Virus record (IMG/VR): IMGVR_UViG_3300020598_000119
Origin: a virus
Taxonomy: Duplodnaviria; Caudoviricetes
Length of the DNA stretch: 64,000 bases
Direction: 5' to 3' (one strand)
Shown: positions 3,141-54,761 of the stretch, in pieces
How positions within the stretch are numbered: the first letter of the stretch is position 1
Layout of the letters: each line of letters starts with the position of its first letter
The notes under the pieces: generated by a model
Told to the model about the DNA's origin: nothing
The model's input: only the letters and a program-made list of their open reading frames with translations
Databases searched by the model: none
Program-made: the position numbers and the translations under genes

Positions 3141-4040
3141 ATGATCCAGGTGAGAGCAAAAGCCAAATTAATACTCGCGGCAATGCTAATGTCATCGAGT
3201 CCATCGAACGCTGAGCCGCAAAGAGATATTTGCGCTCAACTGGCTTCGTCTGACCCTGATTATATCTTGAACCAACTCAGGACATTCTCCCCAAATGTAA
3301 TGGGGAAACCAGCCATCACATGGAGCCGCGATGATCTTGTAAATCTGAGCAAGAACATCTTTGCTTGCGACGGATTACCGAAAGGATCTTCTAATACGCC
3401 AAAGGTCTCCCCGAACAGGTGGGTCAACCAACTGAACGCTGCTGGCAAAGTCGTGTTGCCAATCAACGATCTTAATCGAGCCGTCCAACAGGCCTATAAA
3501 CCACTCTGGAAATGGTCTGATATCCCTACATGTCAAAGCATCCTCAGCTGGAAGAGGGATCAAGTCTGGAATGAAAACAATTCGGAAGAATTATTCGGTA
3601 AGAATTTTCGCGAACTATCCCCTGCAGAAGCTACGATTGCAAAGGGGTTCACCAATGAATGCGTTGCCGTCGCGAAAAAGATTCTTGAATTAAATCGGAT
3701 GGATATGGGCGCAGCTGTAAAAATCGCAGACGATATCGAGCGCACCATTGAAAAAGAACAGGAAGCATCACAGGAAAAGAAGAACGGACTTGCGCCTTCC
3801 TTGAGAATTTATCATGAAGGCAGACGTATCCCCTTGGCATATCTGGGGCCGCAGTCCCGAAAATGGGTCGAATTCGTCAATAAATTCGAATTACAAGATT
3901 TGCCTATGCGCGTTGAGGATATGGTGACGGTCTCAAAATGGACGGAAATGGTGCTTAGCTCTAAGAAAGAGACCCCCGAAAGCGCCTTTGCCGAGGCAGT
4001 CCGAGCGGTGATTTCGAAGAGAATGTTCAGCCAAAAATAA
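3141..4040 (+). CDS. exported hypothetical protein
   Basis: 299-aa ORF with a signal-peptide-like N-terminus and paired Cys. Confidence 0.65.
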   Translation: MIQVRAKAKLILAAMLMSSSPSNAEPQRDICAQLASSDPDYILNQLRTFSPNVMGKPAITWSRDDLVNLSKNIFACDGLPKGSSNTPKVSPNRWVNQLNAAGKVVLPINDLNRAVQQAYKPLWKWSDIPTCQSILSWKRDQVWNENNSEELFGKNFRELSPAEATIAKGFTNECVAVAKKILELNRMDMGAAVKIADDIERTIEKEQEASQEKKNGLAPSLRIYHEGRRIPLAYLGPQSRKWVEFVNKFELQDLPMRVEDMVTVSKWTEMVLSSKKETPESAFAEAVRAVISKRMFSQK

Positions 4041-7107: not shown

Positions 7108-7186
7108 TGGCTTGAACGGCAAGGATTTGAACCTGCGACCTCCTGGACCCATTCCAGGCGCGCTCCCAGACTGCGCTACATTCAAG
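7108..7186 (-). tRNA. degenerate tRNA-Pro-like
   Basis: Pro-type D arm; anticodon loop AATGGGT lacks U33; bulged T stem; CCA. Confidence 0.6.
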
Positions 7187-8067: not shown

Positions 8068-8229
8068 TTAAAATCCTTCTTTCGCCAATACAGCCCGCTG
8101 ACCGCAACCCAGATACGGGAGCGGTAACAAATGGGGGGGATGAGGCAGAGCGGAAACGGCACGCGTCAGGGCGACGCGAGCAGAAACTGCCGCAACCTTT
8201 CCCTGTACTGTCTGTGCCGAAGCGTTCAT
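8068..8229 (-). CDS. leader peptide of the Leu/Pro/His/Tyr tRNA array (53 aa)
   Basis: MNASAQTVQGKVAAVSARVALTRAVSALPHPPHLLPLPYLGCGQRAVLAKEGF*, with a GAGGA RBS. Confidence 0.85.
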   Translation of the reverse strand: MNASAQTVQGKVAAVSARVALTRAVSALPHPPHLLPLPYLGCGQRAVLAKEGF

Positions 8230-8303: not shown

Positions 8304-8465
8304 TATGATTTTTGCAATTTCTGATTTTTTATTCCGAGGACGTCCGATGCCGATGAATCATCTCTGAGGCGGATGGCCATTGGATGGCAAAAAGGGGCTG
8401 CAAGAAAATTGTTGGTTTCCAGCAACCGCAGGCACTATCATGAAACAAAATATTGGAGTTTTTCG

Positions 8466-9404
8466 ATGGCAATAGATTTACCTACCGCAGCCATGGCGCT
8501 TATCACCGCACTGGAGAGCGTCACTGGTGTTCAGATTGCTATTCTCGAACGTCGTGATGACCCGGCTGAATTCTGGGCCAGAACCGCAGCAATTCTATGT
8601 GATAAAACAAAACAGAATTGGTGCAGTGAGGACGTTCGCTTCATGACGTCCAATACGGAACTGATGGGGATGTCTCATATAATCGAGTACAACTTCGATG
8701 GGAAGGGGACACGTAGGGTATGCGCACTCCTGCCGCCCATTGCGAACATCGATCCCAATTTCATCGCCAATGCATATGGTTCACCGTATCCGACTATCTA
8801 CGATTTGCCATCGAGTGCGGAAACGGCAAGTTGGCTGATGCTGTATCATGCGGCGCACTGCCTCGACACAGCTCTGTCCGACCAGGAAGAAAACCGAGCT
8901 GTCGCCTTTGCGACTCTAGGGCTTTCGTTGATGGGAGGAGACTACAAGTTTCTGCCAGGAAGGGTACGCTCATCTGCTCGCCAGATTGCGGCCATGACAG
9001 GTAAGGCATCTGGATATTGGGCCGCAGGCACTGGCGAACGCATTCTGATGGATCTCTGGAAGACTGAAACTGGGGACAGGCTCCGGCGCGAGTACGGATG
9101 CTATCCAATAGTGAAACAGAGCAGCTCGATTGATATCGAACGGATTGCACGCGATTCACGCATTCCAGAAGGACAAAACTGCGCTGCAGAAGCAGGTGGG
9201 AACGGTGGTGGCATGCGTACGAACCCGCAGGGCACAATCACGGACGCCAACCTGTGGCTTTGGCTATATGGGCCTCAAAGTGGAGGAACGTCATCACCAA
9301 GGCTTGGCGTGCCCCCGAAGGACTACTATCCGTTTAAGACCTTCAAGGACTTCAGCACCGCCGCCTCTTACGTATTAGAGACAGCCAACAAGCTAGCGCA
9401 GTGA
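8466..9404 (+). CDS. hypothetical protein
   Basis: Start at MAIDLP after GGAG; HAAHC motif resembles a degenerate HExxH. Confidence 0.65.
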   Translation: MAIDLPTAAMALITALESVTGVQIAILERRDDPAEFWARTAAILCDKTKQNWCSEDVRFMTSNTELMGMSHIIEYNFDGKGTRRVCALLPPIANIDPNFIANAYGSPYPTIYDLPSSAETASWLMLYHAAHCLDTALSDQEENRAVAFATLGLSLMGGDYKFLPGRVRSSARQIAAMTGKASGYWAAGTGERILMDLWKTETGDRLRREYGCYPIVKQSSSIDIERIARDSRIPEGQNCAAEAGGNGGGMRTNPQGTITDANLWLWLYGPQSGGTSSPRLGVPPKDYYPFKTFKDFSTAASYVLETANKLAQ

Positions 9405-9710
9405 CGGTGTCGCTGACGGACGGAGTTCGTTGGCACGTCTGACGAGATCGTCGTGCCATGCCTTGGCTTCTGCGTCTGTGTAGGGCCTATAACAGCCAGA
9501 CCCCCAATCGGAATGAACGTAGTTATAGTCTGCGTCGACCTCCAGCGCATCTGCAGCCGCCGACAGGAGTGCAGTGTCAGGGCCAGTGAAGCGATCCTCA
9601 GGGGCGTCGAATTCGGGGTCGTAGTTCGGCGATAAGTTTGCATGCTTCTCAACGAACGCCCTGATTTCGGCGGCCAATGATCGACGTTCATCTGTCATTT
9701 CAAGCTCCAT
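9393..9710 (-). CDS. hypothetical protein
   Basis: 105-aa ORF; C-terminus PSATPSLR. Confidence 0.6.
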   Translation of the reverse strand: MELEMTDERRSLAAEIRAFVEKHANLSPNYDPEFDAPEDRFTGPDTALLSAAADALEVDADYNYVHSDWGSGCYRPYTDAEAKAWHDDLVRRANELRPSATPSLR

Positions 9711-9794
9711 AGTTCCGACTAATGATCAAAACTTACCCTTGAACGCTACAAACGAGCGAAAAAGAGAAAAAATTAAAAAATGCAAAAATGGCCA

Positions 9795-9823
9795 TTGACA
9801 CATTCCGCCGTCTAATTCATATC
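9795..9823 (+). promoter_or_regulatory. sigma70-type promoter of array 2
   Basis: TTGACA-N17-CATATC with upstream A-tracts. Confidence 0.75.
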
Positions 9824-9847
9824 TAGGGAAGATCAAGGAGTTTAGAA

Positions 9848-9940
9848 ATGTTCGTTCAGTCGTCCCAACAGCAATCCAGCCAGTCGAGTTCATCAAGCTC
9901 GAACGCGGTGCTGTGCGCGGTGACTGATCCGAAAATCTGA
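9848..9940 (+). CDS. leader peptide of the Ser/Gln tRNA array (30 aa)
   Basis: MFVQSSQQQSSQSSSSSSNAVLCAVTDPKI*, with an AAGGAG RBS. Confidence 0.9.
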   Translation: MFVQSSQQQSSQSSSSSSNAVLCAVTDPKI

Positions 9941-9967
9941 CCTCAATATCAGATCAAAAGGTTTCAG

Positions 9968-9992
9968 AACCCGCCCAAAAGGCGGGTTTTTT
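9968..9992 (+). terminator. attenuator terminator of tRNA array 2
   Basis: AACCCGCC-CAAAA-GGCGGGTTTTTT, 6 nt before the first tRNA. Confidence 0.9.
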
Positions 9993-9998
9993 GTATGC

Positions 9999-10090
9999 GG
10001 AAACATGGCTGAGAGGCTTAAAGCAGCGGTTTGCTAAACCGTCAGGGAGGTAAAATACCCTCGGGAGTTCGAATCTCCCTGTTTCCGCCA
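9999..10090 (+). tRNA. tRNA-Ser(GCT)
   Basis: Loop TTGCTAA, long variable arm, GCCA end. Confidence 0.94.
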
Positions 10091-10131
10091 CGAATTCGAA
10101 TTTTCTGTCCGCAGGGAATTCAAACAAATAC

Positions 10132-10219
10132 GGAGCTGTGACCGAGTGGCTTAAGGTGGCAGTCTTGAAAACTGATGCGGCTAACCCCGCCGTAGGTTCG
10201 AATCCTACCAGCTCCGCCA
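10132..10219 (+). tRNA. tRNA-Ser(TGA)
   Basis: Loop CTTGAAA, long variable arm, GCCA end. Confidence 0.94.
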
Positions 10220-10253
10220 CAATTTTGGCTTATTTATTTATGGGAGAAGGGCC

Positions 10254-10457
10254 ATGACAGTACACGAAATAAATGCTCCGGTTGATGCCGTAGACGCAGC
10301 TGTCATGGCCCTTGTGGAAGCCCATGTTGATAAGGCTCAACAGGCCAGAGAACGATCCAATCTGAGGGGATGGTTCGTTGGCCAGACGATGAAGCAGCTT
10401 AATGGAACTGCAGAGCGTCAAACAGTCGAAATCGCAGTGAATAAGGCACTGCAATAA
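10254..10457 (+). CDS. stand-alone GatB/YqeY C-terminal tail-like mini-protein
   Basis: LRGWFVGQTMKQLNGTA resembles the GatB tail motif GFFVGQVMKxxxGKA; RBS present. Confidence 0.7.
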   Translation: MTVHEINAPVDAVDAAVMALVEAHVDKAQQARERSNLRGWFVGQTMKQLNGTAERQTVEIAVNKALQ

Positions 10458-10492
10458 TAGGAGTTTCGGCCTAATAAATGGGCCAAAGAATT

Positions 10493-10582
10493 GGAAAGAT
10501 GGCAGAGTCCGGTTGATTGCACTCGCCTCGAAAGCGAGCAAGCCGCAAGGCTTCGGGAGTTCAAATCTCCCTCTTTCCGCCA
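10493..10582 (+). tRNA. tRNA-Ser(CGA)
   Basis: Loop CTCGAAA, GCCA end. Confidence 0.94.
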
Positions 10583-10588
10583 GCACGT

Positions 10589-10662
10589 TGGGGATTAGTT
10601 TAATGGTAGAACGGCGGACTCTGAATCCGTTGGTCCTGGTTCGAGTCCAGGATGCCCAGCCA
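10589..10662 (+). tRNA. tRNA-Gln(CTG)
   Basis: Loop CTCTGAA, U1-A72, one acceptor mismatch, CCA. Confidence 0.9.
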
Positions 10663-10679
10663 AGAATTACGAAATAAAT

Positions 10680-10754
10680 TGGGGCGTCGCCAAGCGGTAA
10701 GGCATCGGTTTTTGGTACCGACATGCGGAGGTTCGAATCCTCCCGCCCCAGCCA
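10680..10754 (+). tRNA. tRNA-Gln(TTG)
   Basis: Loop TTTTGGT, U1-A72, CCA. Confidence 0.94.
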
Positions 10755-10778
10755 TTTTCGTAGTTAATTCGTTAAATT

Positions 10779-10866
10779 GGAGCCGTGGCAGAGTGGTTGA
10801 ATGCACTCGCTTGGAAAGCGGGCAGACCGCAAGGTCTCGGGAGTTCGAACCTCCCCGGCTCCGCCA
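10779..10866 (+). tRNA. tRNA-Ser(GGA)
   Basis: Loop TTGGAAA, GCCA end. Confidence 0.94.
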
Positions 10867-10888
10867 ATTATTAAATAAGGAAAAATCC

Positions 10889-11125
10889 ATGAGCAATGAG
10901 TCGATTAACATCAAAGAACACGTCACTGCAGGACCGTGCACACTCGTTTGCGCGCGAGCAGGCAATCTCTGGTATCGAACTGCTCTTGGATTTGAATTCC
11001 CAGTGCCTTTCTCGGATATGGGTGACGCGACTTTCTCGTCCGAGGAGAAAGGCATGATGCTCATGCGCTACATCCGAAAGCACAATGAAACGATCACTGC
11101 TGCGCGACAACAACAAGTCGCGTAG
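10889..11125 (+). CDS. small hypothetical protein within the tRNA array
   Basis: AAGGA RBS; sequence includes LWYRTALGFEFPVPFSDMGDATF...MRYIRK. Confidence 0.7.
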   Translation: MSNESINIKEHVTAGPCTLVCARAGNLWYRTALGFEFPVPFSDMGDATFSSEEKGMMLMRYIRKHNETITAARQQQVA

Positions 11126-11161
11126 GCAGTCGTCTTTCTCTCATTAGACGACTTTTGATGA

Positions 11162-11236
11162 TGCCGAGTCGTCTAATGGTAGGATCTGAGCCTTTGAAGC
11201 TACAGGACGTGGGTTCGACCCCCACCTCGGCATCCA
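11162..11236 (+). tRNA. tRNA-Gln(TTG), atypical
   Basis: TGCCGAG/CTCGGCA-TCCA, loop CTTTGAA, irregular anticodon stem, U73. Confidence 0.75.
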
Positions 11237-11263
11237 ATTTTAGCCTTGATTACAAAACTTATA

Positions 11264-11539
11264 TCACTTGGAATTGACGGGTGAGTAAGCGTTTGGAATT
11301 GCCCAGTCTCTGGGAAATCTTAAGCCAAATCCCCCACTCTCATCCAGCTCGATGAATTGGACGCCACGTTTCTCCAGCGCCTTCTTAATGCGCAGCTTTG
11401 TTTCAAGTCGTATACCGACGTTCGTTTCCAATTTCGATATTGTCTTGGGGCTGACGCGTGCCGCGATAGCAAGTTCTGCCTGACTGAGGTTCAGACCAAT
11501 CCTCGCGAGGCGCAGTAAGGGCGGCGGCGGCGTATTCAT
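11264..11539 (-). CDS. XRE-family HTH regulator
   Basis: LRLARIGLNLSQAELAIAARVSPKTISKLE. Confidence 0.85.
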   Translation of the reverse strand: MNTPPPPLLRLARIGLNLSQAELAIAARVSPKTISKLETNVGIRLETKLRIKKALEKRGVQFIELDESGGFGLRFPRDWAIPNAYSPVNSK

Positions 11540-20617: not shown

Positions 20618-21625
20618 ATGTCTACCATCAATAGCGCCCCAATCGCACTAACGGGCGACCGTCCGACTGGACCTCTTCATCTCGGTCACTACGCAGGCTC
20701 TCTGCAGCAGCGACTTCGTCTTCAGGATGAAGGATATCGTTGCTTCGTTATGATTGCCGACATGCAGGCGTACACCGACAATGCAGACAACACCGCGAAG
20801 ATCAGAGACGCCATTCCGCAGGTGGTCTCGGACTATCTCGCAATCGGTCTCGATCCTAGTAGGACAACAATCTTCCTGCAGTCGGCCGTGCCTGAACTCG
20901 CAGAGCTGACGATGCTCTATATGAATTTCATCACGGTGTCCCGTCTGGAGCGAAATCCGACGATCCGCGATGAACTCAAGTTGCGAGAATTCGAGCGTGA
21001 TATCCCTTCAGGCTTCCTGTGCTACCCAGTATCGCAAGCGGCCGACATAACGGCGTTCAAGGCCACTTGTGTCCCAGTTGGAGGTGACCAGCTCCCAATG
21101 ATTGAATTGGCTCAGGAAGTCGCCAGAAAGATCAACCGCGCAGGCGGCAGGGAAATTCTGCCAACGCCAAAGAGCCTCCTGTCCAAGGTCACACGCCTTC
21201 CAGGAATCGACGGCAAAGCGAAGGCGAGCAAGTCTCTTGGCAACGCCATATTCCTTTCGGACAGCCAGAAAGAGGTAAAGGACAAGGTCATGGCGATGTA
21301 CACCGACCCCAACCACATCCGCGTCAGTGACCCCGGACAGGTCGAAGGAAATGTCGTGTTTTCGTACCTGGACGCCTTCGAAAACGACCAGGAGAAGGTT
21401 GAAGACCTGAAGAGACGGTATCGTGCGGGCGGCTTGGGCGATGTCACAATCAAGAAGGAGCTGATCTCATCCCTTGAACGGGTCATGATGCCTATTCGTG
21501 ACCAGCGGGCGGCAAATGATGCCGATTACAAAGACATCATCCGTCAGGGATCGCAGGAAGCAAGAGAAGTTGCGGCGCAAACGCTTGCTGATGTCAAAGA
21601 CGCACTCGGTGTGTTCTCAATCTAA
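20618..21625 (+). CDS. trpS: tryptophanyl-tRNA synthetase
   Basis: TGDRPTGPLHLGH, YPVSQAADI, VPVGGDQ, KASKS (KMSKS variant) and MYTDPNH. Confidence 0.96.
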   Translation: MSTINSAPIALTGDRPTGPLHLGHYAGSLQQRLRLQDEGYRCFVMIADMQAYTDNADNTAKIRDAIPQVVSDYLAIGLDPSRTTIFLQSAVPELAELTMLYMNFITVSRLERNPTIRDELKLREFERDIPSGFLCYPVSQAADITAFKATCVPVGGDQLPMIELAQEVARKINRAGGREILPTPKSLLSKVTRLPGIDGKAKASKSLGNAIFLSDSQKEVKDKVMAMYTDPNHIRVSDPGQVEGNVVFSYLDAFENDQEKVEDLKRRYRAGGLGDVTIKKELISSLERVMMPIRDQRAANDADYKDIIRQGSQEAREVAAQTLADVKDALGVFSI

Positions 21626-39749: not shown

Positions 39750-42503
39750 TTATTCCACATTTTCTGAGGCGTCGATTTCGACGTCAGCGTCAGCGAGTGG
39801 TGTAACCACTTCAGAGTCGTCGATTTCATCCGCACCGACCTTGGCGACGCTCACGATGCGCTGACCTTCAGGCAGATGGAACATCTTGACACCACGTGTC
39901 GCACGTCCCGTCTTACGGACATCCTTGACGCGGGTACGAATTGCCTGGCCACCGTCCGTGATCATAACGAGACCGTCGTCATCGACAACCGGGAAGCATG
40001 CAACGAGCGGGCCAGTTGCGGCGCTAACGTTTGCAGCGGCGAAGCCCTTAGCACCACGAGCGGTCGTGCGGTACCCGTAAGCAGATGAGCGCTTACCAAA
40101 GCCTTTTGCCGAGATGGTGAGCAAGAACTCTTCGTTTGCCCGCATTTCAGCCATGCGCTCATCAGACAGATCGACCGTATAGCTTTCACCAGTCTCCTGA
40201 AGATCAACCGTCGTACGACCGCCTGCAAGGTAGGCCTTCCGCTCGTCCGCCGAAGCGGGGACATGCTTCAGTACGGATGCTGCAATCACTTCGTTCCCAT
40301 TTACCAAGGTGATGGCCTTCACACCCGTACCACTGCGGCTCTTGACTTCACGAACGTCGTCAACTGGGAAGCGCACGCATTCCTTGTCGCGAGTAACTAC
40401 GATCACGTCGTCTTCGTTCGAGCAAAGCAGAACTTCAACCAAACGGCCTTCAGGGTTGCCATGCTCATCTTCAAGCTTGATGGCAATCTTGCCCGCCTTG
40501 TTGATACCCCAGAATGCCTTCGCATCATTTCGACGGATCGAACCAAAGTCAGTGACGAACACAAGGCTTTTGTTTTCCAACGCCGCTTCCTCTTCCGGCA
40601 TCGCGATAACAGCCGAAATAGTTTCGCCTTCACGGAGCGGCACGAAGTTGACCAGAGGGCGGCCCTTCGAGGACGGTGCGCCTTCAGGTAGCTTGTAAGC
40701 CTTCAAAGAATGGGCGATGCCACGGCTAGTGAAGAAAACAAGTGGGGTCTTGGTCGTGCAAATGATCGTCGACTGAACAAAGTCGTCGTCCTTCGTTTCC
40801 ATACCATTGCGGCCCTTGCCACCACGCTTCTGCTCGCGATATGCCGAAAGCTCAGTCGCCTTCACATAACCAGACCTGCTGATCGTGATAACAATGTCAC
40901 GGCGCTCGATGAGGTCTTCATCGTCGATGTCTTCAGCGTCATATGGGCTGATTGCCGTAATACGCTCCGATGAGAACTTCGCACGAACTTCCTCGAATTC
41001 ATTGCGAATTACGTCGTTCATGACGGAAACGTCGTTAAGGATCAGAATAAAACCCTGGATTTGTTGCGAAAGTTCACGGACCTTCGTCGCTACTTCATCA
41101 CGCGCAATACCCGTCAAACGGGACAGACGCATTTCGAGAATGGTATCAGCCTGAATGACAGACAGCGTGAAAACTTCACCGACCGGATTATCGGGATCAG
41201 CTTCAAGGAGCAGCTGCGCGAAATCACCAGAAGTCGGGAATTCCATTGCCATCAACCGTGCACGAGCAGTTTCGACATCTGGAGACGTCTTAATCGTGTT
41301 CACGATCTCATCAATCTTCGAAACGGCCGCGTACAATCCGAGTTGTTTGTGAAGAGCATCACGAGCCTGATTAAGTTCGAATTCAGTGCGGCGTCGAACT
41401 ACGACACGACGGAATGCGACAAATTCGTTCAGAATATCGAGAAGTGGCATTTCAAGCGGCTTACCACGGCTGTTCAGAACAGTTGCATTGTATGAAAACG
41501 AGGATACAAGACTCGTCTTCTTTTTGAGCGTGTTCAGAATGATATTCGGATCGACGTCGCGGCGAAGATCAATGGCAACGCGAAGCGGAGATACACGGTC
41601 GGCTTCGTCACGAATTTCAGTGATGCCTTCGATTTCCTTCTTATTAGCCAGTTCGGCGACACGCTCCTGGAAAGCCTTCGAGCTGTAGCCATACGGCAGT
41701 TCAGTCACGATGATCTGGGTCTTGCCATTCTTCAGCTCAACGATCTCTGCCTTGCCCGCAATGCGGATGGAGCCGCGACCCGTGCGATAGGCTTCACGGA
41801 TGCCACCAGTGCCCTGAATGGTGCCAGCCGTTGGGAAATCAGGCCCAGGAAGCACAGTCATGACTTCATCGAGTGTGGCGTTTGGATTGTCCAGAACCAT
41901 CAGACAGGCATCGAGCGTCTCACCGAGGTTGTGTGGCGGAATATTCGTCGCCATGGCAACCGCGATCCCCTGCTGGCCGTTGACTAGAAGGTTAGGGAAA
42001 CGGACAGGCAGAACCTTCGGCTCCTGCTGGCGGCCATCGTAGTTAGGCTGCCAATCAACCGTATCCTTATCAATGTCGGCAACAGCGTAGTGTGCCAAGC
42101 GTGTCATACGCGATTCCGTATAGCGCATTGCAGCCGCGCCATCGCCGTCACGAGAGCCAAAGTTACCCTGACCGTCGATCAACGGATGACGTTGCGACCA
42201 AGGTTGCGCCAGTCTGACCATCGTCTCATAAATTGCAGCATCGCCATGCGGGTGGTAATTACCCATGACGTCACCGACAATCTTTGCGGACTTATTATAC
42301 GAGCGATTTGCATGGTAACCTCCCTCGTTCATGGCATGAACGATACGGCGATGGACTGGCTTCATGCCATCACGAACGTCAGGAACTGCACGGCTCACGA
42401 TAACGCTCATTGCATAGTTCAGATAAGAACTATTCATCATGTTCTCGATTGTCACATCGAGAATGCCTGTCTTTTCGGAATTTTGTTCGATTTCCATATC
42501 CAT
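39750..42503 (-). CDS. gyrA: DNA gyrase subunit A
   Basis: PDVRDGMKPVHRR, YHPHGD, AAMRYTE and GyrA-box QKRGGKG. Confidence 0.97.
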   Translation of the reverse strand: MDMEIEQNSEKTGILDVTIENMMNSSYLNYAMSVIVSRAVPDVRDGMKPVHRRIVHAMNEGGYHANRSYNKSAKIVGDVMGNYHPHGDAAIYETMVRLAQPWSQRHPLIDGQGNFGSRDGDGAAAMRYTESRMTRLAHYAVADIDKDTVDWQPNYDGRQQEPKVLPVRFPNLLVNGQQGIAVAMATNIPPHNLGETLDACLMVLDNPNATLDEVMTVLPGPDFPTAGTIQGTGGIREAYRTGRGSIRIAGKAEIVELKNGKTQIIVTELPYGYSSKAFQERVAELANKKEIEGITEIRDEADRVSPLRVAIDLRRDVDPNIILNTLKKKTSLVSSFSYNATVLNSRGKPLEMPLLDILNEFVAFRRVVVRRRTEFELNQARDALHKQLGLYAAVSKIDEIVNTIKTSPDVETARARLMAMEFPTSGDFAQLLLEADPDNPVGEVFTLSVIQADTILEMRLSRLTGIARDEVATKVRELSQQIQGFILILNDVSVMNDVIRNEFEEVRAKFSSERITAISPYDAEDIDDEDLIERRDIVITISRSGYVKATELSAYREQKRGGKGRNGMETKDDDFVQSTIICTTKTPLVFFTSRGIAHSLKAYKLPEGAPSSKGRPLVNFVPLREGETISAVIAMPEEEAALENKSLVFVTDFGSIRRNDAKAFWGINKAGKIAIKLEDEHGNPEGRLVEVLLCSNEDDVIVVTRDKECVRFPVDDVREVKSRSGTGVKAITLVNGNEVIAASVLKHVPASADERKAYLAGGRTTVDLQETGESYTVDLSDERMAEMRANEEFLLTISAKGFGKRSSAYGYRTTARGAKGFAAANVSAATGPLVACFPVVDDDGLVMITDGGQAIRTRVKDVRKTGRATRGVKMFHLPEGQRIVSVAKVGADEIDDSEVVTPLADADVEIDASENVE

Positions 42504-42540
42504 TCCTTCTATTTAATTCGTGTCCGGCACTTTCTCTCCT

Positions 42541-43143
42541 TTAAAAGAGAGAGGGCATCGGTCCAGAGCGATCTGCAGAGGCGGGGGCAGAGATCGCAAC
42601 GCGCTCGACCTCAAGATCGACAGCAACCTTGGCTGGCGTCTGTTCAACGAACTGAACACTTTCAGTGCGCAACCTTTCTGCTGCAAAACTAACAGCTTCT
42701 CCGGCCTCATGCTGCCCTGTGCCAAATTCGGCGAAATCGGGTTCTTCAATTCCCAATTCTGGGGACTTTGCGACCAACGCCTCAGCAAGAGCTGCCTCAA
42801 CAGCAGCATCAACAAGTTGGTCGACCTGTGCTTCCGTCGAGAAAAGCGGGTCAACCATCTTGAACAGCCGGGTGTTAATACGAACGTTCTGGTTCAGCGA
42901 CTTATTCATCACCTTTTCGGCAATGATTACGCCGTCTAGAACAGCAGATTCGTCTGCGTAGAACGTGGTTGCCTGCGCGTAGCCATCGAACTGACCTTTT
43001 ACGTAGATCTCTTCAGCGATGACATGACCATCGAACTTAATGCCGAGCGGCACCAAGAGCTTCTTGCAAACAATCGAGCCATTAAAGTCTTCCTTCAGAC
43101 TGATCTGTTTGTTTTGATCACGGATCATTTTTTCTAGACTCAT
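42541..43143 (-). CDS. bactofilin-like protein
   Basis: Beta-helix pattern FNGSIVC...FDGHVIAEEIYVKGQFDG...LDGVI. Confidence 0.55.
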   Translation of the reverse strand: MSLEKMIRDQNKQISLKEDFNGSIVCKKLLVPLGIKFDGHVIAEEIYVKGQFDGYAQATTFYADESAVLDGVIIAEKVMNKSLNQNVRINTRLFKMVDPLFSTEAQVDQLVDAAVEAALAEALVAKSPELGIEEPDFAEFGTGQHEAGEAVSFAAERLRTESVQFVEQTPAKVAVDLEVERVAISAPASADRSGPMPSLF

Positions 43144-43379
43144 AAAAATCCCCATAAAAGGCGGCAAAAATCTGCATAAATTGTATTTGGCACGTCTATT
43201 TGTGTCAACAATGTTGAACGAAATAAACCTTATTTAATGGAAAATTATTTGAGCGACGTCGATATTCGGAGAAACTATGAATCAGCGCTCGGAACCAGGG
43301 CATAAAAGGAGTGAAATCGACATACAAATACGACGGCAGCACAGCCTAAGTTACCTCCAGAGACTGTGCTTTAAAGCTG

Positions 43380-43727
43380 TCAGGCTATGCGGGTTGCTTT
43401 CTCGTGGTTCTTAACAGCGCCCTTCATGCTCTCAGGGTATTCCAAGACTATTTCGACCTTCTTATCCATCATTCGGGGAGATCGAACTATAATCGTCGGC
43501 CGTTCGTTATTTGGGCCTACCATATCAGCATACTTGGCTCGATACTTCTTGGCTTGGCCTTCAAGGAGGCGGCGGGCTACCCGATTGACCTGAGACAGAT
43601 CAAGTTTCTTTCCCCCGACCTCAAATCGGACCTGAATTTCCGAGTCATCAGCTTCCACCGGAACGACAGTTTCCGCAGCAACTCCGACGTCTTCATGCTC
43701 TACGTTATGGATAGCATTATCAGACAT
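43380..43727 (-). CDS. hypothetical protein
   Basis: AAGGA RBS; 115 aa. Confidence 0.6.
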   Translation of the reverse strand: MSDNAIHNVEHEDVGVAAETVVPVEADDSEIQVRFEVGGKKLDLSQVNRVARRLLEGQAKKYRAKYADMVGPNNERPTIIVRSPRMMDKKVEIVLEYPESMKGAVKNHEKATRIA

Positions 43728-43889
43728 GGATTTATCCTTCTTTTATTGCACATATTGATGATGAAGGATTTTCGACATCTGGCAAGCAGACCAATAACAA
43801 AATGTCAGGAAAGATGAATGTTATTCAGCGAAATGGCCCCTCGATTTTCACCGAGAGGCCATTTTTATAAAACTGGTGGATATTAGAGA

Positions 43890-46376
<2,487 letters not shown>

Positions 46377-46558: not shown

Positions 46559-46633
46559 ATGCGCAACACGAGAACGACATGGACATGTTGGAGAACCTAC
46601 AGGGGCTTCCCTGGAGGCGGAGACGTCTGTTGA
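46559..46633 (+). CDS. leader peptide of the Trp/Thr/Cys/Arg tRNA array (24 aa)
   Basis: MRNTRTTWTCWRTYRGFPGGGDVC*, with a GAGAGAG RBS. Confidence 0.88.
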   Translation: MRNTRTTWTCWRTYRGFPGGGDVC

Positions 46634-47778: not shown

Positions 47779-48927
47779 TTAAGTCCCTTCTATCCAGTCG
47801 GAAAAATCTTTGACCAATGGCTCCAACAGCGGCGCGACGTCCATTTTCGAGGCCATCGATTTGTATGCAGGAACCTCCAGCAACGCACGATGGCCAACTT
47901 CTGCGCCGATCAGGTTGCCAAGAACCGCTGCAGTGGAGTCGCTATCTCCCGAATGGTTCACAGCAATTTCGAATTTTCGCTCCAAGGGCACGTCTGCAAG
48001 GGCGGCCAAAATAGCAATGGCAAGGCATTCATGTCCTACCCACCCGCCACCGAGCACCTCAACGTGTTCAGGAGCGATATCAGAGATCGGGGCGATCTTC
48101 ATTACCGAAAGAATGAGCGTTCGCATCAGGCCAGCGTTCTCTACGCCCCTAAGGTATTCCTCAAGCCCAAAGACAGCTGCCTTCAGGCTTTCCCCCTGAG
48201 CGAGCCTATTGACCAGCCAACTTAGCGCCCCAGCAGGAATATAGCCCATTGGGTGCCCATGGGTCATAGCGGCCGCCTTGGCTCCGAGCATGAAACAGTG
48301 CGCGGGATCGGAAAGATTCAGGAAACCTATGGGGGCAACCCGCATGACGCCTCCGCACCCCATGGAGTCGTTTAGCGGGCGCTCAATGGTGCCGATAGCA
48401 CCAGCCTTGCAGGCCGACAGGCAGGTCATTCCAGGTGCTCTGTTGACCCTCATCAAATGGGAATGCCCTAACCGCCCAACAGGCACCTGCGAAGGGTTAG
48501 ATTGTTGGGTTATATACCAGTCCAGATAGGCGTCACGAATACAATCCAATGAGCGCTCTGCTGTGAGGCGATCTCCCCATCGTTGATGAGCCACCAAAAG
48601 GCCCTCCGCAGTAAACATGGTCATTTGCGTGTCGTCACTAACCAGACAACGCTCCCAGGTTGGGAACACGAGTGAAATCGCACGCATAGAGACACCACTC
48701 GGGCCAAATTTTTCCCGAATGGTAGAAATGGAATCAAACTCAACAGCGTAACCAAGCGCATCACCAACCGCCCCCGCATAAAGGCAACCGTAAATCCGGT
48801 CATTCAATGAAAGAGGATGAGGTAGTGCGGCCTCATCCTGCGGAGCAACTTCAATGCTGTCATCTTTCTTGGACAGGAAGATTGATTTCAGTTTTTTGAT
48901 CACGTGACGCCTCCGATCGTGCGTCAA
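47779..48927 (-). CDS. ADP-ribosylglycohydrolase (DraG/ARH family)
   Basis: GAVGDALG, SDDTQMT, GCGGVMR, THGH and NHSGDSDST. Confidence 0.92.
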   Translation of the reverse strand: MTHDRRRHVIKKLKSIFLSKKDDSIEVAPQDEAALPHPLSLNDRIYGCLYAGAVGDALGYAVEFDSISTIREKFGPSGVSMRAISLVFPTWERCLVSDDTQMTMFTAEGLLVAHQRWGDRLTAERSLDCIRDAYLDWYITQQSNPSQVPVGRLGHSHLMRVNRAPGMTCLSACKAGAIGTIERPLNDSMGCGGVMRVAPIGFLNLSDPAHCFMLGAKAAAMTHGHPMGYIPAGALSWLVNRLAQGESLKAAVFGLEEYLRGVENAGLMRTLILSVMKIAPISDIAPEHVEVLGGGWVGHECLAIAILAALADVPLERKFEIAVNHSGDSDSTAAVLGNLIGAEVGHRALLEVPAYKSMASKMDVAPLLEPLVKDFSDWIEGT

Positions 48928-49047: not shown

Positions 49048-50493
49048 ATGAAAATCACTGGCACTTTGCCTGCGAACAGTCGCGTCCGTGTTTCCGGTCA
49101 CGACGTTCACACTATCACTTCGTATAACGAGCCTGAACGACACAAGAGGCTGGCGCTTGATGATCTGTCGAATGCCATTCCGACGCATGATGCGTTTGAA
49201 CAAGCCGCAGCGGCAGTCAAAAGGATTGTGACCACACCGGACTTTCACGCTGGCAAGCCAGTTCCGGTCGGCGTAACCATGTCCATTGAAGGCGCTGCGA
49301 TGCCACATGTCATCGGCAATGACATTGGATGCGGCATGCGAATGGTCGTACTTAACGACGTCACCGAGGACGATCTGGCCGTCAGCGCGCTGGATGGCCA
49401 TTTGCGTCATGTCCATTTCCAAGGCAGTAGAAACATTGCGCTCTCTGGAAGACAGCGCCACGCAATCCTCAAGGAAGGCATCCCAGGGCTGCTGGAAGCG
49501 CTGGCCGGGGACGCGAAGGGGCTATTGGGCAACCTAGAACTAACAGCCGCGTGGAGAGACGTCAGCAGGACCTGTGATGATGGCTTCTTTCCGTCTGTAG
49601 ACATCGATAACGGCTTTCTCGAATACGGAAACCTCACTGACGGATACCGTTACGATGCCATCCTAGGCTCAATCGGTGGAGGAAATCACTTCGTCGAACT
49701 CGGTGTCATCGACAAAATCGTAGACAGCACGTTCGCTATGGCTGCTGGCGTAAAAGCTGGTGCCGTCGTCATGGTCGTTCACTCTGGCTCCCTCGATTTT
49801 GGCCAATATGTCGGCTCAACGACGAAAGGAAGAATGCGAGGACTGGCCAGACATGGCGATCAGCGCATCCTTTCTGCAGAGCACCACACAGACGAGCTAC
49901 AGCGCTTCCTCAACGGCCAAGCTAACGCGGTTAATATCGCTTTTGCAAACCGCTTTCTGATCGGCCTAGCGACCATCCATGCGGTCGAGAAGGCACTGGG
50001 GAAGCGAGTGGACGCAAGATTGATCTATGACGCTCCTCACAACGTCATCTGGTCAGATGGTAACACTTACATGCATCGAAAGGGGTCATGTCCAGCACGA
50101 GGCCAAGGCTTCCAGCATGGTTCGCCTTACGAGTGGCTCGGAGAACCCGTCATCCTGCCAGGCTCCATGGGAGACGGAACATGGCTACTAAGAGGGCTTG
50201 GCAATGAGGAGACGCTAAAGTCTGCAGCTCATGGAGCGGGACGACGCCTATCGCGCCAAGAAGCACGAGCCGAGGCCAATCATCCTGCTGACCTCCAGGT
50301 GATTACACCCATCGATCTCAATGCTCCTGAGGTGCGTTGCAGAGCGGATATCGTTCGTGAAATCGTCGGCCGATTGAAGGAAGAATCTCCTGATGCTTAT
50401 CGGCCAATCGAAAATGTTGTCGCTCCAATGGAGGACACTGGAATGGTCAACAAGGTTGCCAAAGTGCGTCCGGTCATCACCGTCAAAGGATGA
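49048..50493 (+). CDS. rtcB: RtcB-family RNA ligase
   Basis: PDFHAG, DIGCGM, GGGNHF, HSGS, HN, HRKG and HGAGR. Confidence 0.92.
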   Translation: MKITGTLPANSRVRVSGHDVHTITSYNEPERHKRLALDDLSNAIPTHDAFEQAAAAVKRIVTTPDFHAGKPVPVGVTMSIEGAAMPHVIGNDIGCGMRMVVLNDVTEDDLAVSALDGHLRHVHFQGSRNIALSGRQRHAILKEGIPGLLEALAGDAKGLLGNLELTAAWRDVSRTCDDGFFPSVDIDNGFLEYGNLTDGYRYDAILGSIGGGNHFVELGVIDKIVDSTFAMAAGVKAGAVVMVVHSGSLDFGQYVGSTTKGRMRGLARHGDQRILSAEHHTDELQRFLNGQANAVNIAFANRFLIGLATIHAVEKALGKRVDARLIYDAPHNVIWSDGNTYMHRKGSCPARGQGFQHGSPYEWLGEPVILPGSMGDGTWLLRGLGNEETLKSAAHGAGRRLSRQEARAEANHPADLQVITPIDLNAPEVRCRADIVREIVGRLKEESPDAYRPIENVVAPMEDTGMVNKVAKVRPVITVKG

Positions 50494-50948: not shown

Positions 50949-51173
50949 ATGCAAATTACCGTTTATAGCAAGCCAGCCTGCCCTCAGTGCTCCGCAACCA
51001 CCCGCGCTCTCGACAAGAAGGGGGTTGAATATGCCGTCGTCGACGTTTCGAAGGATCAGGACGCCTACGCACTCGTAACTGGTCTAGGCTATCGTCAGGC
51101 TCCAGTCGTCGTCGCTGGCGAAACCCATTGGGCTGGTTTCCGCCCGGACATGATCAGCTCGCTTGCCGCTTAA
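50949..51173 (+). CDS. nrdH: glutaredoxin-like NrdH
   Basis: [17 protein letters not shown] and WAGFRPD. Confidence 0.93.
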
Positions 51174-51184
51174 AGGGCTGCGCG

Positions 51185-51580
51185 ATGAGTATGCTCGTTT
51201 ATTTTTCAACAAAATCCGAATATACCCATCGCTTTATTCAGAAGCTCGGTATTGAAAATTCCCGCATACCGATCAATTCGAAAGAATTCCTGATCGCTGA
51301 AAAACCTTTTGTGCTGGTCGTCCCCACCTACTGCGATACCGCAGGTAAAGGGGCCGTCCCACAACAGGTTTTGAATTTTCTGGACCATGAAGAGAATCGC
51401 AGGAATATACGCGGTGTAATTGCTGCAGGAAATACGAATTTCGGTGCTCAATATGCAATTGCAGGAAACGTGATTAAGAGGGATTATGGTGTCCCCTTCC
51501 TTTATCGTTTTGAATTGATGGGCACGACTGAGGATGTGGCCAATGTCCAGAACGGCCTCGAAAGCTTCTGGAAGCGTTAA
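51185..51580 (+). CDS. nrdI: flavodoxin-like NrdI
   Basis: VYFST, THRF, PTY, GNTNFG and FELMGT. Confidence 0.93.
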
Positions 51581-51595
51581 GTTTAGGAGAATGTA

Positions 51596-53719
51596 ATGGC
51601 TAGTGAAAATGAAATCGATTATTTTGGCCTGAATGCGATGCTGAATCTCTTTGATGAGAACGGCAAGCTTCAGCTCGACAAAGATAAGCAGGCTGTCCGT
51701 CAATATTTCCTTGAAAATGTGAATAGAAACACTGTTTTCTTTCATAATCTAACGGAGAAGCTGGCTTATCTCATCGACAATGGATACTACGAAAAGGAAG
51801 TCTTTGAGCTTTATTCGGACAAATTCGTCCATGAGCTTTTTGATTATGCGTATTCATTCAAATATCGTTTCACGAATTTCGTTGGCGCGTATAAATTTTT
51901 CACCTCTTATGCCTTGAAGACTTTTGACGGCAAGCGCTTCCTCGAACGCTTTGAAGATCGCGTTGCGATGAACGCTCTGGCACTCGCTCGCGGTGACGAA
52001 AAGCTGGCCAAGAACCTCGTTCAGGAAATCATCACCCGCCGTTATCAGCCTGCTACGCCGACTTTTGCGAATGCTGGCAAGAAGCAGCGAGGCGAGCTGG
52101 TTTCGTGCTTCCTACTTCGTGTTGAAGACAACATGGAAGCTATTGGCCGCGCCGTGAATTCCGCTCTGCAGCTTTCAAAGCGCGGTGGCGGCGTTGCTCT
52201 AAACCTCACAAACCTGCGTGAACACATGGCTCCGATCAAGCAGATCGAAGGACAGTCCTCTGGCATCGTCCCTGTCATGAAGCTTCTGGAAGACGCCTTC
52301 TCTTACGCAAACCAGCTCGGATCACGTCAGGGCGCTGGTGCGGTTTATCTGAACGTCCACCATCCGGACATCATGAAACTGCTCGATACCAAGCGCGAGA
52401 ATGCTGACGAAAAAATCCGCATCAAGACGCTTTCGATTGGCGTGATTATTCCTGACATCACGTTCCACCTCGCGTCTCGCGATGAAGACATGTACCTCTT
52501 CTCTCCGTATGACGTCGAACGCATTTACGGCATGCCATTCTCCGATATTTCGGTCACCGACAAATATTATGAGATGGTCAATAACCCGAACATCAAAAAG
52601 TCGAAGATCAACGCGCGCAAGCTGTTTCAGGCTATTGCCGAGATTCAGTTTGAATCGGGCTATCCGTACATCATGTTCGAAGATCATGTGAACGCAGCCA
52701 ACCCAATCCACGGCAAGGTATCGATGAGCAATCTATGCTCGGAAATCCTGCAGGTCAGTGAAGCCAGCGAATTCAACAGCGATCTCTCCTATGCGAAGCT
52801 CGGCAAGGACATTTCCTGCAACCTCGGCTCGCTCAACATCGCCACGACGATGGACTCCCCTGATTTCGGTCAGACCATCGAGACGTCCATTCGTGCCCTG
52901 ACTGCCGTTTCGGACATGAGTGACATTTCTTCAGTCCCAACCGTCGAGCGCGGCAATAACGAGAGCCATGCCATCGGCCTTGGCCAGATGAACCTGCACG
53001 GCTATCTCGCTCGTGAACGCATCTTCTACGGCTCTGAAGAAGGCATCGATTTCACGAACATGTACTTCTACACCGTGACCTATCACGCCCTGCGCGCTTC
53101 AAATGCCATCGCCCGCGAACGAGGCGTAACCTTCAAGGGATTCGAGAAATCGAAATACGCTACTGGCGAATATTTCGACAAGTACACCGAGAAGGCTTGG
53201 GTTCCGACAACGGAGAAGGTCAAGGGTCTCTTCGAAAAGGCTGGCATCGCCATTCCAACGCAGGAAGATTGGCTTGCGCTGAAGAAGCTCATCATGGAGC
53301 ACGGCATTTACAACCAGAACCTTCAGGCTGTGCCGCCGACTGGTTCGATCTCCTACATCAACCATTCGACCTCTTCGATCCATCCGATTGTCTCGAAGAT
53401 CGAAATCCGCAAGGAAGGTAAGATCGGCCGCGTCTATTATCCAGCTCCGTACATCTCCGATGACAACCTCGAATATTATGAGGATGCTTATGAGATCGGG
53501 CCGGAAAAGATCATCGACACCTATGCTGCCGCTACGCAGCACGTCGACCAAGGCTTATCTCTGACGCTGTTCTTCCGTGACACAGCCACGACCCGCGACA
53601 TCAATCGCGCTCAGATCTACGCGTGGAAGAAGGGCATCAAGACCATCTACTACATCCGCATGCGCCAGGCCGCGTTGGAAGGTACGCAGATTGAAGGCTG
53701 CGTCTCTTGCGCCCTCTAA
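51596..53719 (+). CDS. nrdE: class Ib ribonucleotide reductase alpha subunit
   Basis: [23 protein letters not shown] and C-terminal CVSCAL. Confidence 0.96.
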
Positions 53720-53738
53720 GAGTTCGAAAGGAAAATAA

Positions 53739-54761
<1,023 letters not shown>

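Follow-up and report, generated by a model that had tools for sequence, protein, structure and literature searches.

A serine- and glutamine-rich leader ORF as a probable codon-matched transcription attenuator of tRNA genes on a large rhizobial replicon

Bacterial transfer RNA (tRNA) genes are a textbook case of growth-rate and stringent control exerted at promoters. Leader-peptide attenuation is known from enterobacteria, where multivalent attenuators respond to threonine and isoleucine (thrL) or to isoleucine, leucine and valine (the leader of ilvGMEDA), where trpL, hisL, leuL and pheL are further examples, and where the pheM leader of the Escherichia coli pheST operon acts as an attenuator controlling phenylalanyl-tRNA synthetase. 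General accounts of leaders of this kind are available (PMC1183508, PMC2965389). Here we describe a locus in a 64,000-nucleotide (nt) stretch of DNA, the IMG/VR virus record IMGVR_UViG_3300020598_000119 (Duplodnaviria; Caudoviricetes), which is referred to as a whole as the window. In this locus a short open reading frame (ORF) with 15 consecutive serine (Ser) and glutamine (Gln) codons, followed by an intrinsic terminator, stands directly in front of seven Ser and Gln tRNA genes, which form the second of three tRNA arrays found in the window with ARAGORN (Table 1). The original prediction had read the element as an attenuator, and our analysis supports that reading: all sequence-level hallmarks of a leader-peptide attenuator are present and are conserved across diverged relatives, and very likely, the seven-gene Ser/Gln array is gated by the element through ribosome-mediated leader-peptide attenuation of transcription, with feedback through the tRNA pool.

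Like attenuators of the thrL and ilvL type, the locus combines a promoter-proximal short ORF and its Shine-Dalgarno (SD) sequence with a stretch of regulatory codons that specify at least two amino acids, 1:2, 2:3 and 3:4 structures that exclude one another, and an intrinsic terminator, the position of the ribosome being predicted to decide the outcome and termination being the predicted default when the leader is not translated. Unlike in that type, the targets are tRNAs rather than biosynthetic enzymes, and the product would feed back directly on the decoding of the leader, whose codon run samples every isoacceptor of the array. With pheM the locus shares leader-peptide attenuation of a component of the translation apparatus and a predicted response to the supply of charged tRNA, but pheM controls an aminoacyl-tRNA synthetase protein and reads one amino acid, whereas here the target is a set of tRNA genes. 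We know of no described leader that senses Ser or Gln. The earlier remark that such leaders are not among the classical attenuators is consistent with our literature searches and with Rfam, in which no leader family reached its gathering score on the leader; the best sub-threshold match (Leu_leader, 21.3 bits against a cut-off of 50) was driven by the terminator. The element belongs neither to the classical amino-acid leader families (Trp, His, Leu, Thr and Phe), its downstream genes being tRNAs, nor to the T-boxes, for which Rfam gave no match at gathering score or at E values up to 10. Judged by its sequence, it would be a classical ribosome-mediated attenuator with a new target (tRNA genes), new sensed amino acids (Ser and Gln) and a run in which every isoacceptor is sampled.

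Two described collections of tRNA genes invite comparison. The L-array (trn operon) of Anabaena sp. PCC 7120 consists of horizontally spread supernumerary tRNAs that are normally silent and are induced when translation is impaired; it is co-regulated with rtcB, and its control operates through promoter repeats (PMC8421152). The window likewise carries supernumerary tRNAs, with an RtcB gene near array 3, but the Anabaena study mentions neither a leader ORF nor an attenuator and concerns a single long array rather than arrays sorted by amino acid. The pMEGA megaplasmids of Enterobacteriaceae carry 100-208 tRNAs in amino-acid blocks, whose proposed roles are compensation for codon usage or protection against defences aimed at tRNAs (bioRxiv 10.1101/2025.09.30.679422). 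The present system resembles pMEGA in being a megabase accessory replicon with a full, amino-acid-sorted tRNA complement, and pMEGA also carries LpxC- and Clp-type genes; the two differ in host clade, and the text of the pMEGA preprint, on which this comparison is based, contains neither "leader" nor "attenuat". Our literature search found no published case of leader-peptide control of tRNA genes, although most subscription journals lay outside its coverage and absence is therefore unproven. Tran et al. (PMC4758250) define a tRNA array unit by at least 20 tRNA genes at a density of at least 2 per kb, a definition that array 2, with 7 tRNAs in 1.24 kb, falls outside.

The codon run reads exactly as originally listed (CAG TCG TCC CAA CAG CAA TCC AGC CAG TCG AGT TCA TCA AGC TCG); it uses both codons for Gln and all those for Ser except TCT, and the four Ser isoacceptors and three Gln tRNAs that were said to lie downstream were confirmed with ARAGORN. 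When all six frames of the whole window were considered, the next longest Ser/Gln run comprised 5 codons, and in 50 base-shuffled windows the longest did not exceed 7. The other two reading frames of the run encode mixed residues, and Tandem Repeats Finder and a run check found no tandem repeat within it, in agreement with the earlier argument that it is not a slippage repeat. For each of the six distinct anticodons of array 2 (CGA, GGA, UGA, GCU, CUG and UUG), the run contains two or more copies of the Watson-Crick codon, AGT being the sole codon read by wobble. The locus thus has the cluster of cognate regulatory codons expected of a ribosome-mediated attenuator, within a 5' short ORF that by its sequence possesses a ribosome-binding site and a start codon.

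Folding of the leader RNA gave three alternative states. The naked RNA (9826-9995) has a minimum free energy (MFE) of -58.9 kcal/mol (z = -4.5), with the run paired to 9906-9928 and the terminator folding separately. When a ribosome was placed on the run as a folding constraint, an antiterminator of -19.4 kcal/mol appeared, as against -10.3 +/- 2.5 kcal/mol for shuffled sequences, and when the ribosome was placed at the leader stop only -2 kcal/mol remained and the antiterminator was absent. The pairing proposed earlier between 9917-9927 and the 5' side of the terminator (9964-9974) was recovered within this antiterminator (9915-9974, -19 to -20 kcal/mol). The three computed states correspond to those of classical attenuation, namely default termination, read-through on stalling and termination when translation is fast; in silico, an antiterminator that excludes the terminator forms or fails to form according to the position of the ribosome, and the intrinsic terminator lies between the leader ORF and the genes that would be regulated.

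The same three-state logic was found in 10 of 10 sequences folded. Their naked RNAs form the run hairpin and the terminator, and the anti-antiterminator topology of the window recurs in all relatives folded. Antiterminators formed with a ribosome on the run have energies of -18 to -28 kcal/mol and engage the 5' arm of the terminator, while folds with the ribosome at the stop have only -0.8 to -3.2 kcal/mol and no antiterminator. Set against dinucleotide shuffles, the antiterminators of 9 of the 10 sequences were more stable, with z = -2.1 to -4.5. All 10 retain the closing helix by which the GCGCGG motif pairs with CCCGC in the terminator arm, and the interior hairpins vary in sequence among relatives but keep their position and an embedded stop codon. 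Because these inner hairpins cannot be aligned by sequence, RNAalifold applied to a MAFFT alignment of the antiterminator region recovered the closing helix alone; inner structures were judged by folds of individual sequences and their shuffles rather than by covariation statistics. In the hairpin within the codon run, one pair covaries (C-G / U-G / U-A), one of the changes costing a Ser-to-Asn replacement, and this hairpin possibly serves to pause RNA polymerase or forms the core of the 1:2 structure.

DNA contexts from relatives were fetched through homologues of the adjoining gene at 8373-9404, which has no Pfam family and falls into 88 homologue clusters, and a motif scan added Pararhizobium sp. 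BT-229 (1.60-Mb contig). These contexts include Rhizobium leguminosarum CP140867.1 (1.32 Mb), a 1.37-Mb contig of Agrobacterium rubi, a 1.16-Mb contig and several metagenome contigs. The leader cassette is present in 11 elements from Mesorhizobium, R. leguminosarum, A. rubi, Pararhizobium and metagenomes, whose flanking proteins are 44-83% identical (98% in the closest relative). All 11 keep the SD, the ATG, an ORF of 28-31 codons, the Ser/Gln run, the terminator and the Ser/Gln array, and every one of the 11 arrays is preceded by the cassette; the array is lacking only from the most distant context (L033, 39% identity), which is devoid of tRNA genes. The position equivalent to the -35 box is occupied by TTGACA or TTGACT in 11 of 11 related leaders, and most contexts also keep a divergently transcribed Tyr/Leu/Pro/His array.

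Example peptides of these leaders are MNVYGIQQQQSQSSSSSSNA..., MFVKNAQQQQSSQSSSSSSIAM..., MFALSLQQQSSQSSSSSSNT..., MFVLNSQQQQSSQSSSSSSIAMLRGDMK, MYALSSSQQQSSQSSSSNS... and MFILSAQSQQSSQSSSSNST..., and Mesorhizobium sp. SP-1A, the nearest genome, has the leader of the window with two amino-acid changes. Changes within the run are synonymous except for AGC to AAC, and indels 5' of the run are multiples of three, while the C-terminal tails of the peptides vary freely. The GCGCGG motif (GTGCGG in two leaders) always lies 16-25 nt before the stop, but five leaders have it in frame 1 and six in frame 2, and the residues that it encodes differ; it is therefore conserved as RNA and not as peptide. The terminator core AACCCGCC/GGCGGGTTTTTT is invariant in 10 aligned leaders. 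All six anticodon classes are sampled by 10 of the 11 leaders. In two relatives, L031 (Logan SRR16230133) and L034 (Pararhizobium sp. BT-229), the array begins with tRNA-Ser(CGA) instead of tRNA-Ser(GCU), and the leader of this sub-group has five TCG codons and no AGC; these sequences hint that the codon content of the leader may follow which tRNAs the array contains or in what order.

A megablast search with 9700-11300 gave only short tRNA-Gln matches among plasmids and no match among phages, and a DNA search of 61 relatives found the leader in Mesorhizobium sp. SP-1A only, the other matches being pieces of tRNA. A strict motif scan of all species genomes gave two matches, Pararhizobium sp. 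BT-229 and Mesorhizobium sp. SP-1A. A loose scan of 401 family genomes gave matches in 35, of which the six inspected besides SP-1A lay within ordinary coding sequence with no downstream tRNAs; since the rate equalled that of a reversed-pattern control, these matches were treated as noise.

Agreement between leader codons and downstream tRNAs, claimed originally, holds for array 2, for the other arrays of the window and for those of the nearest genome. The array 1 leader LPHPPHLLPLPYL (...ALPHPPHLLPLPYL...; 8068-8229, minus strand) precedes tRNAs for Tyr, Leu, Pro and His and is likewise conserved in relatives, and the array 3 leader MRNTRTTWTCWRT... (TRTTWTCWRT; 46559-46633, plus strand) precedes tRNAs for Trp, Thr, Cys and Arg; a terminator follows each. 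The codons ACG, ACA, AGA, AGG, TGG and TGT of the array 3 leader pair one-for-one with the downstream anticodons. The two leaders share one promoter type, TTGACA-N14-ATTCAT, and in both cases an A-rich tract precedes the promoter, as it does at array 2. In Mesorhizobium sp. SP-1A, 45 tRNAs for all 20 amino acids are distributed over about 130 kb in seven arrays of 2 to 13 tRNAs, and candidate leaders there contain RRRF (Phe/Arg), KRK (Lys), EERREDD (Glu/Asp) and AIAINTINVTANMAGG.GIVV, the last before an array for Asn, Val, Gly, Ala, Met, Ile and Thr. When the seven leaders, taken as SD-bearing ORFs between promoter and terminator, were compared with the seven arrays by a log-odds segment score, 7 of 7 scored best on their own array, and the true assignment was the single best of 5040 permutations.

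In four of these SP-1A arrays, all outside the window (G001:C2, ~935,700-1,066,300), a second promoter-like site, TTTTTGTTGTTGAC, lies between the leader terminator and the tRNAs; these are the Phe/Arg, Lys, Glu/Asp and 13-tRNA arrays. Three of the four have an extra small ORF after the terminator, and those of the Phe/Arg array (MRRRRRKKARFRSKMFDF) and the Glu/Asp array (MPEGDDDSDEREREE...) are rich in the residues of their own array. Within the window, a tRNA-Pro(UGG) at 7108-7185 (minus strand) scores 31.8 bits on the Rfam tRNA model, compared with 48 to 71 for the others, and its 77-nt counterpart in SP-1A is called as tRNA-Ser(GGA); it may be a decaying or anticodon-shifted copy.

These observations can be assembled into a mechanism. 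Transcription would begin near the promoter-like site, and a ribosome would load on the 30-codon leader. With charged Ser and Gln tRNAs ample for all six codon classes, this ribosome would reach the stop codon, cover roughly 9923-9953 and melt the inner hairpin, blocking the antiterminator; the terminator would then fold, and the transcript would stop 6 nt before the first tRNA. Were any such tRNA scarce, the ribosome would stall in the run and disrupt its pairing with 9906-9928, and the freed GCGCGG (9915-9920) would pair with the 5' arm of the terminator around pre-formed inner hairpins, so that RNA polymerase would read through and array 2 would be made, with release of the tRNAs presumably by RNase P and 3' processing. 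The new tRNAs would quicken translation of the leader and shut the array off again, which would close a negative-feedback loop. When the leader is not translated, the run would pair with the motif, making termination the default. Array 2 tRNAs would probably be made, then, only when ribosomes read the leader codons slowly. The attenuator reading rests on sequence anatomy, conservation, in silico alternative folds and the matching of codons to tRNAs, from which we infer translation of the leader, the start of transcription, pausing and the response in vivo.

Three other explanations deserve consideration. The one that survives best accepts ribosome-mediated attenuation but holds that the signal for which it evolved is starvation for Ser or Gln, as in biosynthetic operons, and not the size of the tRNA pool. 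A stalled ribosome indeed cannot distinguish a missing from an uncharged tRNA, and classical attenuators read charging. Gln-tRNA charging may, we presume, depend on the indirect pathway of the host, and no Pfam match to glutaminyl-tRNA synthetase was found among the window proteins scanned. However, the genes under control encode tRNAs, and a shortage of amino acid is not eased by making more of them; the run samples all six isoacceptor classes instead of repeating one codon and retains the host-rare codons TCA, AGT and CAA; and the whole tRNA complement is organized in this manner and adjoins a tRNA repair ligase. We consider starvation very unlikely to be the evolved signal.

An even slighter chance attaches to the second explanation, in which the attenuator is sensed by a protein or by uncharged tRNA, in the manner of TRAP/PyrR or a T-box, and the run is conserved solely for RNA structure. 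The run hairpin with its covarying pair and the tolerated Ser-to-Asn change do imply that RNA structure constrains part of the run. Nevertheless, the SD, the ATG, the frame and the position of the stop are all conserved, as is the triplet phasing of indels 5' of the run, and third-position changes preserve Ser or Gln. Nor did Rfam reveal a T-box or any other riboswitch at gathering score or at E values up to 10, and a single RNA-binding factor would fail to account for six other arrays that share the layout although their sets of amino acids are quite different. The least probable explanation of the three, that ORF and terminator are a gene in their own right, for a micropeptide rich in Ser and Gln or for a small RNA, with the tRNAs served by another promoter and the codon match incidental, can appeal to the good SD and terminator that the ORF possesses and to the second promoter-like sites of SP-1A, which make uncoupling possible in principle, but it is countered by the gap of only 6 nt between U-tract and tRNA-Ser (roughly 4-25 nt in relatives), by an unconserved C-terminal half of the peptide in which the conserved GCGCGG shifts reading frame, by the match of 7 of 7 leaders to their own arrays and by folds that depend on the position of the ribosome.

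Several observations weigh against the codon-sensing attenuator that we prefer. In relative L031 the antiterminator is weak against shuffles (z = -1.1, ribosome on the last codon). The closing helix of the window has only about 6 bp with a bulge, and it shows no compensatory change because both of its strands are nearly invariant; conservation of the inner hairpins is topological and not one of statistical covariation. The full-length MFE structure always includes the terminator, and the antiterminator therefore needs co-transcriptional kinetics. The predicted transcription start rests on the promoter-like site, the -10 element of which (CATATC) is weak by E. coli rules, and for this reason a consensus promoter and terminator scan of the locus left the promoter unflagged; the same scan flagged no terminator, probably because A-U pairs lengthen the stem into the U-tract, although the terminator is plain in the folds. 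In relative L032 the leader has neither TCC nor TCT for its tRNA-Ser(GGA). The comparison of seven leaders with seven arrays was not fully blind, and selection bias is possible because the leaders were chosen by eye. The array would be switched on as well by ribosomes held up through a shortage of Ser or Gln, a condition in which more tRNA is of no obvious benefit. Finally, the anticodon stem-loop of the replicon tRNA-Gln(UUG) is identical to that of the host copy, so that a nuclease-evading variant is unsupported for this tRNA.

The features of the locus are collected in Table 1. All seven tRNAs of array 2 have an encoded CCA and pass the Rfam tRNA model. Since the first of them starts 6 nt after the U-tract, there is no room here for a separate tRNA promoter. 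The neighbouring gene at 9393-9710 is encoded by the opposite strand and is transcribed away from the leader, and the terminator therefore serves no upstream gene but separates the only plausible promoter from the tRNAs.

Table 1. Features of the array 2 leader and its tRNA genes (positions in the 64-kb window)
Feature	Position	Strand	Remarks
A-rich tract, UP-element-like	9758-9790	+	About 4 GAAAAAAT units; Tandem Repeats Finder and sequence; directly 5' of the -35 box
Promoter-like site	9795-9823	+	-35 TTGACA 9795-9800, 17-nt spacer, -10-like CATATC 9818-9823; read from the sequence, putative assignment
Shine-Dalgarno AAGGAG	9835-9840	+	7 nt 5' of ATG 9848; GGAG-type SD before ATG in all relatives
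Leader ORF, 30 codons + TGA	9848-9940 (TGA 9938-9940)	+	Encodes MFVQSSQQQSSQSSSSSSNAVLCAVTDPKI; ORF, frame and 28-31-codon length kept in 11 elements
Control region, 15 consecutive Ser/Gln codons	9857-9901 (codons 4-18)	+	TCG x3, TCC x2, TCA x2, AGC x2, AGT x1, CAG x3, CAA x2
Conserved hairpin within codon run	9884-9902	+	UCGAGUU / AGCUCGA; one covarying pair among relatives; putative function
Anti-antiterminator	9851-9932	+	Naked RNA: run pairs with 9906-9928, GCGCGG motif sequestered
Antiterminator	9915-9974	+	GCGCGGU 9915-9921 : ACCCGC 9969-9974; helices 9924-9930/9960-9967; inner hairpin
Inner hairpin of antiterminator	9935-9954	+	AUCUGA / UCAGAU; leader stop UGA 9938-9940 in 5' strand
Intrinsic terminator	9966-9992	+	10-bp GC-rich stem 9966-9975/9981-9990, 5-nt loop, U6
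Array 2 tRNA genes	9999-11236	+	Ser(GCU), Ser(UGA), Ser(CGA), Gln(CUG), Gln(UUG), Ser(GGA), Gln(UUG); ARAGORN and Rfam

Array 2 also contains two small ORFs, at 10254-10457 and at about 10889-11125. The first, which lies on the plus strand between tRNA-Ser(UGA) and tRNA-Ser(CGA), encodes 67 amino acids with a match to the GatB/YqeY tail domain (PF02637, 30.6 bits), and in relative L023 a 67-amino-acid GatB_Yqey ORF occupies the equivalent place (3532-3735). A tRNA-binding-type domain of this kind inside an array with tRNA-Gln genes may have a bearing on the formation of Gln-tRNA. Between arrays 2 and 3 lies a class I aminoacyl-tRNA synthetase gene of the Trp/Tyr type (20618-21625, plus strand; PF00579, E = 1e-60), and directly downstream of array 3 are genes for an ADP-ribosylglycohydrolase (47779-48927, minus strand) and an RtcB RNA ligase (49048-50493).

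The carrier is a large, partly self-sufficient accessory replicon with a GC content of about 51% in a host of 65% GC. In SP-1A the carrier contig is 1.19 Mb long and has about 51% GC at every place sampled, compared with 64.9% for two host contigs. Beside a ClpB-like ATPase, the window encodes GyrA, GyrB, NrdI/NrdE/NrdF and a long pentapeptide-repeat protein at 39750-46361 (minus strand), 51128-54761 (plus) and 55553-57253 (plus). About half of the 92 tRNA matches in the SP-1A genome are on the carrier contig (~46 in the host and ~46 more on the replicon); because the host has a tRNA set of its own, the array tRNAs are supernumerary. They are 71-93% identical to their host counterparts, except that Ser(GCU) and Ser(CGA) had no BLAST match. 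In crude ORF sets, the codons TCA, TCT, AGT and CAA make up 14, 17, 7 and 29% of their synonymous families in window genes, as against 4, 5, 2 and 18% in host genes.

What the array is for can be stated with less confidence than how it would be controlled. The role towards which we lean, though at somewhat short of even probability, is a self-tuning of tRNA supply to the demand of a 51%-GC replicon in whatever host carries it, here one of 65% GC, which is favoured by the gap in GC content and codon usage. A back-up against tRNA depletion or damage is a possible role to which we give somewhat less weight, favoured by the neighbouring RtcB gene and the Anabaena precedent (PMC8421152); a response to amino-acid starvation, or something else, is unlikely. 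Whether these replicons are, more broadly, megabase-scale, low-GC Rhizobiales elements with a complete second tRNA set in seven amino-acid-sorted arrays, each autoregulated isoacceptor by isoacceptor through a codon-matched leader attenuator and forming, together with RtcB and an aminoacyl-tRNA synthetase, a self-tuning translation back-up, seems to us evenly balanced.

If the attenuator works as proposed, gauging the speed of decoding at the codons of its own tRNAs would constitute a direct feedback on the tRNA pool at the level of single isoacceptors. Among the carriers are rhizobia that grow in culture and are open to genetic work (Mesorhizobium sp. SP-1A, Rhizobium leguminosarum GCA_035969035.1, Agrobacterium rubi and Pararhizobium sp. 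BT-229), and the leaders lend themselves to synthetic biology as compact, modular sensors of translation, each specific to particular amino acids. For the replicons themselves, control of this kind would explain how giant mobile elements can carry full tRNA sets without constant cost, and how they adapt to hosts of different codon usage (51% versus 65% GC) or to tRNA-targeting attack. With a self-tuning back-up, the AT-richer genes of the replicon could be expressed whatever the host, and specific tRNAs lost to depletion or cleavage would be replenished.

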